From NCBI GenBank assembly GCA_041478735.1, contig JBGOWS010000001.1, positions 1-38,689 of the forward strand: a stretch of 38,689 nucleotides of DNA, read 5' to 3'. Made by a program: the position numbers and the translations under genes. The notes under the pieces are model-generated. The model was not told where the DNA came from. It saw nothing but the letters and a program-made list of their open reading frames with translations, and made no database searches. The stretch is from Thermodesulfovibrionia bacterium (GTDB lineage: Bacteria > Nitrospirota > Thermodesulfovibrionia > Thermodesulfovibrionales > SM23-35). Of this stretch, positions 2,877 to 34,958 are shown piece by piece (positions within the stretch are counted from its first letter, which is position 1; each line of letters begins with the position of its first letter).

Positions 2877-4097
2877 ATGCCACAGTGTCTGGTCTGTAAA
2901 TACCATATAGCACCTTTCATGTCTTTTGGCAGGATGTCGCTGGCTAACGGCTTTCTCCCTGCAGATCGTTTTAGTGAGGAGTACTTCTTCGATCTGAGTG
3001 TTGCATTCTGCTCGAACTGTACGATGGTGCAATTGGTCGAACAGCCAGCACCTGAGAAGATGTTCCATGGTGAGTATGCTTTTTTTTCAGGAACATCATC
3101 AGGAATGGCCGCCCATTTCGAAAAGTTTGCTTCCCATGTTATTAAAGATTATCTTGGATCTGATGATCCATTTGTTGTTGAGATTGGATGTAATGACGGA
3201 ATAATGCTGAGACATTTCGCAGACACAGGAATAAGACATCTTGGCATTGAGCCCTCGGAGAATGTCGCAAAAGCTGCAAAGGCGCTGGGTGTGAAGACAA
3301 TTAGCCGTTTTTTTGATGAGGACCTATCGAGGGATATTGTTAGAGAGCATGGCAAGGCCGATGCATTTCTGGGTGCAAACGTTATGTGCCACATCGCGAG
3401 TATTAATTCTGTGATCCAGGGAATCAAAACGCTTCTGAAGCCGGATGGCGTTGCCATGTTTGAAGATCCATATCTTGGGGATGTTATCGAGAAGACTTCT
3501 TATGACCAGATATATGATGAGCACGTTTTCCTGTTTTCTGTCTCATCAATTCAATATGCCTTTAAACAGCACGGGATGGAATTGATCGATATCGAACCGC
3601 AGAGTACGCATGGGGGTTCTATGCGTTATGTGATCGCGCACAAGGGTGCCCGTAAAATCGCAGATTCCGTGTTTGAGCAGTTGGAAAAGGAGGCGGTACT
3701 TGGACTTAATCGGGCAACGACATATGATAGATTCAGGCGGAAGTGCGAGGAGTCGAGGGATGCGTTAAAGGCGATTTTGACAGGGCTCAATAGCGAGGGT
3801 AAGCGCGTTGTCGGGTATGCCGCGACATCGAAAAGTACGACGGTACTGAATTACTGCAACATCGACTCATCTCTTATTTCGTATATCAGCGATACAACAC
3901 CTATCAAACAGGGAAAGTATAGTCCGGGAGTGCATATTCCTGTGAGGCCTTATCAAGAATTTGTCTCAGACTATCCTGATTTTGCGCTTCTGCTTGCCTG
4001 GAATCATTCAGAAGAGATAATGGCCAAGGAGCAGAAATTCAGGGAAGCCGGTGGAAAGTGGATTGTCTTTGTGCCGGAGGTTAAGGTTCTGGAATGA
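2877..4097 (+). CDS. NDP-hexose C-methyltransferase (TylCIII-like; Zn-ribbon + class I SAM MTase + C-methyltransferase C-terminal domain)
   Basis: N-terminal CxxC...CxxC ribbon (MPQCLVCKY...[10 protein letters not shown]), SAM motif VVEIGCNDG, 406 aa, sugar-cluster context. RBS GGAG upstream. Confidence 0.75.
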
Positions 4098-29748: not shown

Positions 29749-29961
29749 TTACCTATAGCCCTCCCTCTGCTCCATTCTTATCTGGATATTGTTTGTTCTA
29801 ACTATATACCTATGGGCAAGCCCGTGGAACTCTGCTGATGGATTAGAGACAAAGTCTAAGCTGGTAAATTGTGAACCCTGATCAGAGTTAAAGATGTCCG
29901 GCATTCCTATGGCAAATGCCTTCTGTAGAGCACTTATACAGAAATCCAACCTCAAGGCCAA
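29749..29961 (-). pseudogene. IS3-family transposase (integrase core) fragment
   Basis: PDIFNSDQGSQFTSLDF is the DDE-core HSDxGSQYTS block. There is no N- or C-terminal remainder. Confidence 0.6.
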
Positions 29962-30051: not shown

Positions 30052-30502
30052 TTGCATCAGTGCACATGCACACCTGGCCAGATACATCATTACAGGCACA
30101 GGGTCTCAGGCCCGCTTCTTGACAGGATTGATATCTATATAGAGGTGCCAGCAGTGCCATATAAAGAACTGTCTAATGAATATTCAGGTGAGAAATCAGA
30201 AGACATAATGAAACGGGTTGGCGCTGCAAGGGGCATTCAGCTGGAGCGTTTTAAGAACGACAAGAAAATATTCAAATGGCCAGATGAAGACAAGGCATAT
30301 AAAGAAGTATTGCAGTCTCCGGGCGGATGCACAGGTACTTATCGAGACTGCTATGCACAAACTCGGCCTTTCTGCAAGGGCGTATACGAGAATATTGAAA
30401 TTATCACGGACTATTGCTGACCTTGAGGCTTCAGAGGAAATACAGTCCCACCATGTCTCAGAGGCTATTCAGTACAGGACGCTGGATAGAGGGGTGTTTT
30501 AG
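30052..30502 (+). pseudogene. comM: comM/yifB (Mg-chelatase-like AAA+ ATPase) 3' fragment, frameshifted
   Basis: CTCTPGQIHHYRHRVSGPLLDRIDIYIEVP in one frame continues as [15 protein letters not shown]...[21 protein letters not shown]...AIQYR in another. The frameshift lies near 30262-30272, and the N-terminal two thirds are missing. Confidence 0.7.
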
Positions 30503-30568
30503 GATTTTTTTGAAAATAAATAAGTTATTATATACTTCATTTAAAGATATGCAGCAAGGAGGTTTATT

Positions 30569-30811
30569 ATGACGCACCCGCTTCTCAATCGTATCTCCGT
30601 TGATCGAAATGTTTGCTTTGGCAAACCTTGTATTCGGGGCACTAGAATCTGGGTATCCCTTATTCTCGATTTCCTTGCCAGCGGGATGACGATTAAGGAG
30701 ATAATTGAAGAATATCCTCAACTGACAGAAGATGATATCCGAGCTGCCATAGCTTACGGTGCAGAAATGTCACGTGAACGATATGTTGAAGTCCCAGCCA
30801 AAACGACTTGA
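30569..30811 (+). CDS. DUF433-domain protein (antitoxin-like partner of DUF5615)
   Basis: ISVDRNVCFGKPCIRGTRIWVSLILDFLASGMTIKEIIEEYPQLTEDDIRAAIAY is the DUF433 signature. Confidence 0.75.
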   Translation: MTHPLLNRISVDRNVCFGKPCIRGTRIWVSLILDFLASGMTIKEIIEEYPQLTEDDIRAAIAYGAEMSRERYVEVPAKTT

Positions 30812-30817
30812 TAATTA

Positions 30818-31092
30818 ATGAAGTTCAAACTTGACGAGAATTTTGGAACGCGGACCAACAATTATTTCATGCTGCTGGGCACGAAGTTGAAACAATCAGA
30901 AGCCAAGAGTTACAGGGATGTTCAGACTTTCATCTTTTTGAAATATGTTGTACTGAACAGCGCTGTCTTGTTACATTGGATCTGGATTTTTCAGATGTTA
31001 CACGTTTTCCGCCTGCCAAAGCCGCTGGTATAGTTGTTACTCGAGTCCTCAACTTGATTGGCAGCGAGTCATGCCCTGTTTCTCTGAGTTAA
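30818..31092 (+). pseudogene. DUF5615 (PIN-like/Mut7-C toxin) gene with a frameshift near 30850
   Basis: MKFKLDENFGTR in frame 1 continues as ADQQLFHAAGHEVETIRSQELQG...RCLVTLDLDFSDVTRFPPAKAAGIVV in a second frame. Confidence 0.65.
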
Positions 31093-31714: not shown

Positions 31715-32047
31715 TCACGCGTAACTGTTAAAAAATACTTTCCATTTCAACTCTTCCATTTTTTCAGGCAAAATGAGATTGCATTGAAAGAGATTTATGA
31801 TGGTTGATATTGCAGACTTTATGGCAGAAGGTTTAAGCAGTCCAGCCTCTTTCCAGTTCTTGATGAGGCATTAACCGATCTCGAAGGACTTCCCTGTCTG
31901 GCTGGTGACAGCCATGATAACAGTGTCCTGCGAAACTGCATTATAGCGTGAGGAACTGATTACTACTGCTGGGCGTTTCTTGGTGGTTGTTTGATCGCTG
32001 AAGGGGAAAGGTACGAGGACGATATCCCCTCGCTTATAGGCTGTCAT
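31715..32047 (-). pseudogene. MazF/PemK-family toxin with an in-frame TAA (plus-strand 31871-31873)
   Basis: The minus strand reads MTAYKRGDIVLVPFPFSDQTTTKKRPAVVISSSRYNAVSQDTVIMAVTSQTGKSFEIG*CLIKNWKEAGLLKPSAIKSAISTI.... Its ATG overlaps the antitoxin stop (ATGACAGCCTATAA). Confidence 0.7.
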
Positions 32048-32230
32048 AGACAGCGTCCTCTTCGTTATCCCAGACCTTATCGAAAGACGCTTTGGATAAT
32101 TCCTGAGAGGCTTTCACGAGAGGCACTTTTTCTCTTTTGTTTCAAGAAACTGAATAAAATCGAAAACCTCTTGGAGAAGATTTTCTGGTAGCTTCTCTAT
32201 TTCGCTTTTGATCATCTCTTTTACTGACAT
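32034..32230 (-). pseudogene. DUF2281-type antitoxin, frameshifted in an A-run
   Basis: MSVKEMIKSEIEKLPENLLQEVFDFIQFLETKEKK then shifts to PLVKASQELSKASFDKVWDNEEDAVYDSL*. GGAGG lies 6 nt upstream of the ATG, with a perfect TATAAT further upstream on the minus strand. Confidence 0.65.
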
Positions 32231-32289
32231 CGTTGACCTCCTTCTTAAATAAGATTATACCTGAACCGGCTGATTCTTTTCACTTCTAT

Positions 32290-32588
32290 TTTTTCCAGGG
32301 GCTTGGCCGAGACTTGCCGAAGTATTGCAAGGAGAAGGACAAGCTTGGAGGAGCGAAGTATGGGCTTGTCCCTGGCATGAGCTTGAAGATAGAGAGGAGC
32401 GGAAGCTTGAAGCTGACCCTTGCCGTGCCGCAATGTTCCGTGCGAAGTCAAAGGATCATAAGGGCACTATTTGCAAGGGGGATGACAGGACCGCAATCCC
32501 GAAAGCTTTCGGGACTGAGCGAAGGGGGCTATGGATAAACCTGGTGGCTGTGAGTGGCGGGCGGGAGTAGCAGGCACTCCTTTTTTGG
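32290..32588 (+). other. GC-rich, helix-rich non-coding segment (candidate structured RNA or decayed sequence)
   Basis: Noticeably more GC-rich than its flanks. Helices GGACAAGC/GCTTGTCC (separated by 19 nt) and the 16-nt palindrome CCCGAAAGCTTTCGGG. GAGCGRAAG recurs three times, and the segment ends in a hairpin plus a T6 run. No convincing ORF. Confidence 0.3.
32563..32586 (+). terminator. Weak rho-independent terminator candidate
   Basis: GGAGT-AGCAGGC-ACTCC followed by TTTTTT. The stem is only 5-6 bp. Confidence 0.35.
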
Positions 32589-32602
32589 ACTTTTAACAGT
32601 AG

Positions 32603-32618
32603 CGTGATAAAATCGTGA
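32603..32618 (+). repeat. Left copy of a 16-bp direct repeat, CGTGATAAAATCGTGA
   Basis: An exact copy recurs at 32835-32850. Together the two copies bracket the tRNA-Ala 3' fragment. Confidence 0.9.
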
Positions 32619-32739
32619 CAAAATACGGCTAAAATGGTATAACTCTATCGAGCTATGTAGCTGAAGGAAACTCCGTCAAACCTTTTATTGGCAAGGCTTT
32701 TCTGGTATTTTCAAGCACTTGTCATAATCCCCTGGCTAA

Positions 32740-32786
32740 GAATGGCATTCAAGAGGTCGTCGGTTCGATCCCGATCAGCTCCACCA
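32740..32786 (+). pseudogene. Orphan 3' half of tRNA-Ala(GGC): anticodon loop through encoded CCA
   Basis: GA-AUGGCAU-UCAAG-AGGUC-GUCGG-UUCGAUC-CCGAU-CAGCUCC-A-CCA. This comprises an anticodon loop with U33/GGC/A37, variable loop AGGUC, a 5-bp T-stem with a UUCGAUC loop, and an Ala-type acceptor 3' strand. The upstream sequence cannot form a D-arm, a 5' acceptor strand or a full anticodon stem. Confidence 0.6.
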
Positions 32787-32792
32787 ATAATT

Positions 32793-33101
32793 TCAATAAG
32801 TTACGCAAAGCTGTTTCTCCCTCTTTTTAGCCACCGTGATAAAATCGTGATAATTGCCTGTCAGAGTCTTGTCTAATACATCAACTTCTGGATATATTTC
32901 AGTGCTCTCAGCGAAATGCTGTTGTATTTCACTAAAATATCTCTTTTTAAATTCCTCTGGTGATATTTCAACAGAACGATAAGCAAGATACCGCGGAAGT
33001 GTTTCATAAACAGATAATCTATTTTCGTCAGTATTGATATCAATCAATGTTCCATAAAGATTAAAAAACAGTGCTTTTTCGTCTGAGTCTGAGGCCCCAT
33101 T
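32793..33101 (-). pseudogene. HAD-superfamily hydrolase N-terminal fragment with a degenerate motif I
   Basis: ALFFNLYGTLIDINTDE aligns to the HAD motif I hhhhDxDGTLhD, but both Asp are replaced (N and Y). There is no ATG, and the frame ends ~100 codons in, inside the direct repeat next to the tRNA fragment. Confidence 0.45.
32835..32850 (+). repeat. Right copy of the 16-bp direct repeat, CGTGATAAAATCGTGA
   Basis: Exact match to 32603-32618. Confidence 0.9.
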
Positions 33102-33138
33102 TCAGACATTGCATTGCCTCATTGGCAAGCCTTTTCCT

Positions 33139-34080
33139 CTAATTCCATTCAAGATAATTATTCCTCGCAATCCTCAACTCTGTAAGCGCCATATAAAAAG
33201 GATTCCTAAAAGTAATTTCTCTAAATGTTGCCTTACGATCACAGAAATGACTAGCGTAGCTTTTAAGAAAATGCTTGATAAATGGTTCTGCCTCGTAAGG
33301 ATTCCCCGTCCTCCACAAAAATGCATGTTTTAATTCTCCACATACCATCCCTATATCGACTACCCTATCAGTAGTTCTCATTCTTTCCAGGTCTATGGCA
33401 ACCACGCTGCCACTTTCAGTAAATATAAAATTAGTTGGAGTGGCATCACCATGAACAATGACACTTTTTGTCTCATTAAGTAAATGCCTGTTCAACCATT
33501 TATCCATCAGTTTTAAATATATCCTCCTATCACAATCTGATAGTATGCCTTGTTTATATAATTTATTAAGGATCCTCTGAAAATATGTACTCACTAAATC
33601 GAGCTCAACATTTCCATTCTTAACTGTTCTTGAATGTAATACATAGAGGAAGCAGGCAAGTTTCGCAAGTTGTTTTTTAAAAGACCTGCTGTCTCCTTCA
33701 TAAATGGACTTCTTCAAATAATAGTCAAGGTCCTTACCATGAATAAATTCCTCTATGAGGGCAAGACCAATTCTCTCTTTCCTGCTGATGGGTCGAACAA
33801 CATAATAAGGGAAAGAATCAAATCCGTATCTTCTTATCTTCTGGAGATTATCATATTCACCTTTTATCCTCAGAATCTTGTCGGGTTTCGTATCATTCAG
33901 TTTGAAAAATTTACCAATAACGGCCATTTGAGTTTTTTCTTCAGTATACTTATACACCCTTTTAAAGGACATTCTGGTTACATTGAAAAATGGATTTTTA
34001 ACATCAGGATAAATCTCTGAGCAAAGTATATCGTAAAGAGGGTCAGTACAGTCTAATTTCCCAAGGTATAATTTATCCAT
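33139..34080 (-). CDS. Aminoglycoside-phosphotransferase/choline-kinase-family (protein-kinase-like fold) kinase
   Basis: Brenner-type catalytic motif VIVHGDATPTNFIF followed by VVAIDLERM (DxE/D metal site). Lys-containing N-lobe. 313 aa. Confidence 0.7.
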   Translation of the reverse strand: MDKLYLGKLDCTDPLYDILCSEIYPDVKNPFFNVTRMSFKRVYKYTEEKTQMAVIGKFFKLNDTKPDKILRIKGEYDNLQKIRRYGFDSFPYYVVRPISRKERIGLALIEEFIHGKDLDYYLKKSIYEGDSRSFKKQLAKLACFLYVLHSRTVKNGNVELDLVSTYFQRILNKLYKQGILSDCDRRIYLKLMDKWLNRHLLNETKSVIVHGDATPTNFIFTESGSVVAIDLERMRTTDRVVDIGMVCGELKHAFLWRTGNPYEAEPFIKHFLKSYASHFCDRKATFREITFRNPFYMALTELRIARNNYLEWN

Positions 34081-34143
34081 GATTTATCCTATTTCTTTTA
34101 GCGCCATATTTTACTTGAATCTCTTTTTTTAACATTCATAAGC

Positions 34144-34260
34144 TTAGGGACAGTAGTTCCAACCCTGTCCTCCCCACATCATGCCAGGGCCCTGTGAATA
34201 AGCAATAGCAACGATTGTAAGTACTGATACAAGAGTTAATATTATTGTTAACCTTTTCAT
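34144..34260 (-). CDS. 38-aa predicted secreted peptide (not in the ORF track)
   Basis: GGAGG lies 6 nt upstream. MKRLTIILTLVSVLTIVAIA-YSQGPGMMWGGQGWNYCP is a Sec-type signal followed by an 18-aa Gly/Trp/Met-rich tail with a penultimate Cys. Confidence 0.4.
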   Translation of the reverse strand: MKRLTIILTLVSVLTIVAIAYSQGPGMMWGGQGWNYCP

Positions 34261-34311
34261 ACTATACCTCCTTAGCTTCTCGAGTATTTTTAAATCTTAT
34301 TTCAAGGTTCT

Positions 34312-34455
34312 TTACATATCTGATATGTTGCAATCAGGAAGGATTCTCACCCGGCAGTCACCGTCTGTGTCTAATGACTTGTAGTCAGCATAATTGACAA
34401 GATAGCCTTCGTTATCTAATTCAATTTTAAAATCTCCAATTTCAATTACTGACAT
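34312..34455 (-). pseudogene. DsrC/TusE-like N-terminal fragment (47 aa)
   Basis: GGAGG upstream. MSVIEIGDFKIELDNEGYLVNYADY resembles the TusE/DsrC N-terminus (xxGKxIExDxEGYLxxxxxW). The remainder, including the C-terminal Cys arm, is missing. Confidence 0.35.
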
Positions 34456-34958
34456 ATTTACCTCCTTTTAAGTTTTTAATCTTACTTATTTACCTAAAGC
34501 AAACTTAATGCCACCAATATAACCTATTGATTCTTTTAAATTTTTGAATATAAAACTGGGAATACCATAGGACATTTTGCCTTGTTAACAGGGAATATTG
34601 CCCGAAGGGATAATAAAAAATAACTTTATCTTATCGATTTACAGATGAAAATGTTGTATTACAGCCCTATACCAAAAAATCACTCTCCCAGAAAGAAGTC
34701 GAATTTCAGAATTTTTTGCTTTGTTCGTTCCATCTACTAGTCTTCATTTTTGATAAGAATAAGAAATTAATGATTATCGGTTGAAAGTGAGCATAAGAAA
34801 AGGCAAGATATATTATTTCACCTTCTCTGAATTTATTCTTTGTTATACTGCCGCTATCTTGTCCAAGGAAACCAGATAAGATACAATAAGTTAGAATTTA
34901 CTTTATTAAAACCACCCAAAGAGGTGAAACTAATTTTTCAGTGTGAGGTAAGCATGCC

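Follow-up and report, generated by a model that had tools for sequence, protein, structure and literature searches.

What left the 3′ half of a tRNA gene, bracketed by two exact copies of a 16-bp repeat, between flagellar motor genes and a cysE-cysK pair? The fragment is located near the right end of the window, the whole stretch of 38,689 nucleotides analysed in this study, and an earlier note on this DNA had read it as the attR-type scar of a tyrosine-integrase island whose decayed remains lie to the left. The meaning of the two repeats had been left undecided between arm-type sites and a secondary rearrangement. The window is contig C41 of a MAG assembly that has 316 contigs and a total length of 2.27 Mb. 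Here, we compared the fragment and its flanks with the other contigs of this assembly, with 41 and then 57 related genomes, and with metagenome contigs. Based on this comparison, the segment from 32603 to about 32875 can be described as a complete module in the configuration of an attP site, and it probably represents a seam between islands that were stacked at tRNA-Ala(GGC). The features of the module and of the DNA to its left are listed in Table 1.

Table 1 Features of the att module and of the adjoining DNA in the window.
Feature	Position	Strand	Remarks
IS3-type integrase-core (rve) fragment	29749-29958	-	Pfam rve E=5e-4, below cut-off, fragmentary; just after motB
Copy of the final 449 nt of comM, frameshifted	30054-30500	+	Pfam Mg_chelatase, Mg_chelatase_C
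DUF433 gene and frameshifted DUF5615 partner, toxin-antitoxin-type cargo	30545-31092	+	Pfam 8e-27; 1e-11
Segment with N-terminal MazF/PemK fragment (31871-32113)	31799-32295	-	Pfam PemK_toxin 3e-10
GC-rich non-coding spacer, outside the conserved att module	32296-32602	.	Homology of relatives starts only at 32603
P-arm tandem motif (left 16-mer), CGTGATAAAAT-CGTGACAA	32603-32621	+	Outer limit of the module; putative arm-type integrase site
Rest of P arm, with conserved box GTATTTTCAAGCACTTGT (32705-32722)	32622-32739	+	72-77% identical to attR-type sites
Core	32740-32790	+	tRNA nt 30-76 (32740-32786) and 4 nt of trailer; identical to intact gene
P′ arm (integrase-proximal), without integrase	32787-32875	+	About 80% identical to the arms of C18, G023, G015, G061 and G012
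P′-arm tandem motif (right 16-mer), CGTGATAAAAT-CGTGATAA	32835-32853	+	Starts 49 nt after CCA

The tRNA fragment and its partner copies

The fragment corresponds to the 3′ part of a tRNA, as had been proposed. It begins with G30 of the anticodon stem and continues through the loop AUGGCAU, the variable loop, the T arm and the acceptor strand to CCA. Its 5′ side has neither a D arm nor a 5′ acceptor strand, and the anticodon stem is reduced to two Watson-Crick pairs and one G-U pair. ARAGORN found no tRNA or tmRNA gene in the whole window, and Rfam, used at its gathering thresholds, gave no match there. In the whole assembly, ARAGORN detected one intact tRNA-Ala(GGC) gene, which lies on the minus strand of contig C18 (33794-33869). 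This gene matches window positions 32740-32790 at 51 of 51 nucleotides (BLAST), with C18:33840-33790 as the partner coordinates, and the assignment of the fragment to tRNA-Ala(GGC) is thereby confirmed. Genome-wide, the BLAST search revealed a repeat of 51-53 nt that is common to three loci, namely the window, C18 and contig C272. The copy on C272 (15015-15067) is also partial, and it is identical to the window from 32741 onward at 53 of 53 positions. These partner copies sit on separate contigs and none is found on C41, while partners on the same molecule are present in the complete genome G023 and in L145, L151 and L156.

A divergent tmRNA or tRNA-like RNA gene that extends over about 32478-32786 was considered as another source of the tRNA-like sequence. 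The tmRNA model of Rfam gives a full-length match in a 701-nt search, and a GGGGAUG at 32478 could pair with the 3′ acceptor strand at six of seven positions. However, this match is weak (15.1 bits, E=5.6e-4), far below the gathering score of 47, and ARAGORN was negative. In addition, the assembly has a normal tmRNA with the tag ANNELALAA on C115, the fragment retains the anticodon loop of tRNA-Ala, which is missing from tmRNA, and conservation in the relatives begins at 32603, not at 32478. An RNA gene of this type is thus extremely improbable.

The integrase locus on C18

On C18, the intact tRNA gene is followed by 85 nt and then by the 3′ end of the gene for an intact tyrosine integrase of 350 aa (Phage_integrase, 2e-33), for which the closest solved structures are those of XerC-like and HP1-type integrases. 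Named matches to this integrase are mostly from MAGs of the Nitrospirota/Thermodesulfovibrionales. Beyond the integrase, there is an excisionase-like protein of the HTH_17/AlpA type, followed by a 133-aa ORF. The ancestral order of the family, found in G002, G013, G015, G020 and G021, consists of a SpmS-like gene, tRNA-Ala(GGC) and an NTPase_1 gene. In the genome that contains the window, this locus is split: SpmS, the tRNA and int are on C18, and a tRNA fragment with NTPase_1, RACo and PanC is on C272.

Both flanks of the core are element arms

The left flank, hereafter referred to as the P arm (32603-32739), is 72-77% identical to the flank upstream of tRNA fragments in at least eight relatives and in 13 metagenome contigs, which were detected by a pattern of P arm and core. 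The eight relatives, G012, G009, G015 (contig C53), G036, G003, G068, G063 and G046, belong to the same family or order, with G036 coming from a different family. Of the 13 alignments with metagenome contigs, about 10 show homology that begins at the left 16-mer, at base 32603 or 32604. The right flank, or P′ arm, is 77-83% identical to the sequence directly downstream of the tRNA or of a tRNA fragment on C18 and in G023, G015 (C156), G061 and G012. Except in the window and in G012, the P′ arm always precedes genes for an integrase orthologous to that of C18 (65-74% amino acid identity) and for an orthologous AlpA-like protein (43-49%). Judged by sequence, the window therefore has element-specific arms on both sides of the core, which are conserved with the att sites of other members.

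This arrangement bears directly on the reading as a plain attR, in which the fragment would be the distal repeat of the left-hand island, the right flank would be bacterial, and the second 16-mer would be incidental or the result of a later rearrangement. The left side agrees with such a site, as it behaves like the P arms of attR sites in relatives and has island-type debris beyond it. The right side does not: its sequence, in which the second 16-mer lies at +49, shows about 80% identity to the arms on C18 and in G023, G015 and G061, whereas genuine bacterial flanks downstream of the tRNA repeat (C272, G015 C53 and G009 C30) are unrelated to the P′ arm beyond about 14 nt. Host DNA is thus not found to the right of the core; the ancestral neighbour NTPase_1 lies on C272, as judged from G002, G013 and G015. 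Instead, P arm, core and P′ arm occur together within a single stretch of 270 bp, as in an internal chimeric site. Since the right flank is an integrase-proximal arm, the site is either configured as an attP or a chimeric junction between two islands, and not a simple attR. Of the earlier note's claim, the part that holds is that a tyrosine integrase left an att scar with the 3′ half of a tRNA; a plain attR is improbable because the right flank is a P′ arm.

Independent sites have the same structure. The two-armed module is also present on the metagenome contigs L146, L148, L150 and L156, and contig C110 of G012 (L016) provides, at 2370-2672, a second genome with a P-core-P′ module that lacks an integrase. 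In G012, AbiE and PIN genes lie beyond the P arm, and a B12-binding radical-SAM gene lies beyond the P′ arm. The G012 module and that of the window share about 25 nt beyond the point at which the integrase-bearing arms diverge. As a separate observation, L052 (contig C18 of G061), at 3010-3242, has a 3′-truncated copy of tRNA-Ala(GGC), then, 77 nt further on, a full copy, a P′-like arm and a frameshifted integrase.

The same comparison speaks to the quality of the assembly. In a MAG of 316 contigs with three copies of a 51-53-nt repeat, a chimeric contig could have been joined across the repeat. However, the two-armed module is found in an independent genome (G012) and on at least four independent metagenome contigs. 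Moreover, the P′ arm of the window is 80%, not 100%, identical to the arm on C18, so that a mis-join of the known copies cannot yield it. An artefact of assembly is accordingly very improbable.

The 16-mers form a tandem motif at fixed distances from the core

The 16-mer CGTGATAAAATCGTGA occurs exactly at 32603-32618 and 32835-32850, as had been noticed earlier, and nowhere else in the window, even when two mismatches are allowed. The chance expectation is 0.01, and none of 100 shuffles gave two copies; a chance origin was rejected. Each 16-mer is composed of two CGTGAnAAAA units spaced by 11 bp. The motif has the same orientation in both arms and forms the outer ends of the conserved module. 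In its tandem GTGAYAAAATCGTGA form, it is present in only three copies in the whole 2.27-Mb assembly, all of which are at att sites. The third copy is located on C18, 49 nt downstream of the intact tRNA: CGTGACAAAATCGTGACAA lies within the 85-nt interval that separates the integrase from the tRNA, 49 nt after CCA, which is the distance seen for the right 16-mer of the window.

The spacing of the motif is well conserved. The left motif lies 137 nt before the core in the window, 136-138 nt in G012, G009 and G015, and 152 nt in G036; ten metagenome contigs were found to have this motif, at a distance of 135-136 nt. The right motif follows CCA after 49 nt in the window, on C18, and in G012 and G023, after 47 nt in G015, and after 50-52 nt in metagenome contigs. 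Four or five metagenome contigs have such a second motif 50-52 nt after CCA, i.e. they are configured as attP like the window. G015 is a clean case of a single island. One of its contigs has the order SpmS, tRNA, P′ arm (motif at +47), int and xis, while another has P arm (motif at -138), fragment and an NTPase remnant. As the element of G015 has the motif in both arms, its attP would consist of the motif, about 120 nt, the core, about 48 nt and the motif. This deduced order is exactly that of window 32603-32853.

In the lambda and HP1-type systems, the integrase binds the arm-type sites through its N-terminal domain. By analogy, the 16-mers are most likely arm-type sites for this domain, for which the Pfam arm-binding-domain match on the C18 integrase is below threshold (E=0.0028). 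The excisionase as the protein that binds the 16-mers is a live alternative, and a host factor is also conceivable. Of the two meanings that the earlier note had left side by side, the fixed distances in both arms favour the arm-type pattern and argue against a secondary rearrangement.

The motif was not found in the first 45 of 80 named loci, which hold the closest relatives of the integrase (up to 68% amino acid identity), and it thus appears to be specific to a close clade. The integrases at these named loci adjoin various tRNA genes. Within the present genome, the arm on C272 lacks the motif, so at least two types of element or an internal deletion must be assumed.

The DNA on either side of the module

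To the left of the module, motA-motB is followed by about 2.9 kb of debris, and the proposal that this DNA is island-like is borne out by its content: the IS3 rve fragment, the comM duplicate, the DUF433/DUF5615 pair, the MazF fragment and a match to the end of an island in G023. This match, which comprises 31799-32295, has 79% identity over 498 nt to G023 L017:4813-5310 and lies about 310 nt upstream of the junction fragment of G023. In G023, this segment belongs to an island at tRNA-Ala(GGC) and is located at its distal end. Compared with the intact comM gene, whose 3′ end lies at C198:8752-9200, the duplicate shows 96.4% identity and ends exactly at the stop codon. Located beside the IS3 rve fragment, it resembles a second duplicate of the 3′ end of a target gene, and it is possibly the relic of an element that targeted comM. 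The spacer that separates the debris from the module has a hairpin and a T-run at 32563-32590, which is terminator-like. A palindrome in this spacer, ATCCCGAAAGCTTTCGGGACT (32496-32516), is repeated, in exact or nearly exact copies, on at least 15 contigs and has the appearance of a REP-like dispersed element.

To the right of the module, there is a stretch of 34% GC (32876-34900) with an APH-like kinase, which may be residual island cargo; the genome average is 40.6%. It is followed by cysE-cysK. These genes are core-like, with 80-83% identity to relatives, and taken together with the flagellar block the range is 80-87% at the amino acid level. A second att site was not found in the remaining 5.8 kb of C41 to the right of the module. 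A tblastn search of C41 with the C18 Int, Xis and orf133 sequences gave no integrase remnant. The 84-aa ORF on the minus strand (32793-33047) was considered as such a remnant and rejected, as it merely reflects the DNA homology of the P′ arm. An empty site was not recovered in the relatives because synteny is too poor for the comparison: the genes after motB differ in G020, G023 and G019, and the flanks of cysEK differ too.

The flagellar block

Read away from the tRNA, C18 carries a sigma-54 regulator and then the flagellar block from FliF to FlhA, and the window has flagellin, FlaF/FlbT and motAB, after which come the debris and the junction. The segments C18:1-31090 and window 1-29743 are collinear, in order and orientation, with a single block of roughly 80 kb in G023. 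As a lead only, the flagellar block may be located between the attL module of C18 and the junction in the window, and the ~80-kb block might be excisable as part of an att array. We also considered the block as a mobile island in the relatives. This idea was not supported, since in G020 and G023 the block ends without integrase, tRNA or att homology.

Origin of the module

The module has a P arm of 137 nt, a core made of the 47-nt tRNA 3′ half and a short trailer, and a P′ arm of about 85 nt. We propose that the integrase would connect the motifs of the arms with core sites at the anticodon stem-loop, with strand exchange taking place in or near the anticodon loop, and that each integration would duplicate about 47-51 nt. 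If another element then integrated into an att site that already existed, a P-core-P′ seam would result by tandem accretion. In this scheme, the left arm and the toxin-antitoxin debris would form the far end of one element. An older element, whose near end would be represented by the right arm, would have lost int and xis and could be described as a CIME-like, non-autonomous remnant. As both arms and the core are intact, the module should still serve the C18 integrase, and it is predicted to remain a substrate of the C18 Int and Xis acting in trans.

Two findings count against a seam, namely that the P′ arm is not followed by an integrase and that the partner sites are on separate contigs. In addition, the junction is found between the flagellar block and cysE-cysK, and not next to the genes that are conserved beside the tRNA; this position requires a rearrangement or a different route of entry. 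Such a route is part of a reading in which the module is an attP that never recombined: the element would have entered without its integrase, by IS3 cointegration or by homologous recombination at the 3′ end of comM, and then decayed. The intact module is indeed found between the core-like motAB and cysEK blocks, away from the tRNA locus, the insert begins on the left with an IS3 rve fragment and a comM 3′ duplicate of 96% identity, and G012 C110 has an equal two-armed module without integrase. However, the argument from location is weak, since this family shows little conservation of gene order, with different flanks of cysEK and motB in each relative, no integrase remnant is left, and tandem arrays with the same structure are directly seen in relatives. 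We therefore regard entry of an unrecombined attP as unlikely and favour the seam between stacked islands. A circular element was rejected as well, since the two ends of the G012 C110 contig do not overlap, nor do those of the window contig.

Arrays and cassettes at tRNA-Ala(GGC)

In the complete genome G023, the order tRNA, int1, 9.5 kb, fragment, P′ arm, int2 and xis2 constitutes a tandem array. Many relatives have two to four copies of the fragment, which are 8-12 kb apart. Furthermore, L151:3557-5893 and L156:6466-8389 contain cassettes of 1.5-2.3 kb that have no integrase and lie between P′ and P arms plus a tRNA-Ala fragment. Their cargo consists of AbiEi/AbiEii or of a DUF4143 AAA ATPase. 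On L150, Gp49/HigB-like and PIN genes are located on opposite sides of one such module. These contigs contain arrays of mini-elements.

A tentative extension, which we consider possible but less likely than not to be correct, is that the tRNA-Ala(GGC) locus of this Nitrospirota family is an array of cassettes, in which attP-like modules of ~270 bp separate short integrase-less cassettes with toxin-antitoxin, defence or other genes that are moved in trans by Int and Xis. If this were true, the cassettes could be excised, reshuffled or captured by means of the single Int/Xis pair beside the tRNA, and the array would be integron-like in function, yet built from lambda-type sites.

Relation to known systems

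The att sites of lambda and HP1 are well established and provide the closest frame for the module. As in the lambda-type integrases that target the anticodon-loop sublocation of tRNA genes (P4/CP4-57- and HP1-like), the element carries the 3′ half of the tRNA. The intact tRNA lies beside int, a direct repeat of 45-51 nt is found at the far end, the arms are asymmetric (137 nt for P and about 85 nt for P′) and delimited by repeated motifs, and an AlpA-type excisionase adjoins int. In contrast to these systems, the window has both arms at one chromosomal site without an adjoining integrase, and the CGTGAnAAAA motif and the hosts are new.

For integrative elements, accretion, CIMEs and chimeric internal att sites have been described (PMC5704250). 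Known cases are ICESt1 and its CIME in Streptococcus thermophilus, and the chimeric attI of a composite island at tRNA-Lys in S. agalactiae (PMC5704250). The proposed seam resembles these in that two elements at one tRNA 3′ end are joined by an internal chimeric att site. It resembles CIMEs in that one partner has lost the integration genes and kept its att arms, and decayed cargo is common to both. ICESt1/CIME and the S. agalactiae island differ from the window in that they form contiguous arrays whose excision was shown experimentally, whereas the partners of the window module are on other contigs and were recognised by sequence comparison. The related mini-cassettes (1.5-2.3 kb, with one set of toxin-antitoxin or ATPase genes) are smaller than typical CIMEs. 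Repeated insertion at the 3′ end of one small-RNA gene or other gene is described for the ssrA genomic islands of Dehalococcoides (PMC3146451) and for tandem arrays of SGI1 (PMC2297512). As in the present locus, the units of these systems are separated by a short target sequence in direct repeat; their target genes and integrase families are different.

The module in the window is thus an ordinary type of leftover recombination site that has been neatly preserved. Specialists in mobile elements will find no surprise in this att site, as its kind is known, while the motif and the hosts are new. For an uncharacterised family of islands, which uses tRNA-Ala(GGC) as a hot spot in genomes of the Nitrospirota/Thermodesulfovibrionales type, mostly MAGs, the comparison defines a minimal attP that comprises core, arms and motif within about 270 bp. 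It also points to small toxin-antitoxin or defence cassettes without integrase that are probably mobile by means of a shared integrase. Annotators should avoid labelling the fragment as a tRNA pseudogene with unknown origin. In assemblies of these genomes, the module flags break points. A separate repeat of about 250 nt, seen at C202:~2230-2480, has a GGGGGGATTAAGGGGGGTG-type palindrome and occurs on more than 40 contigs with 70-97% identity; it is MITE-like and is probably a main reason why the assembly is so fragmented.
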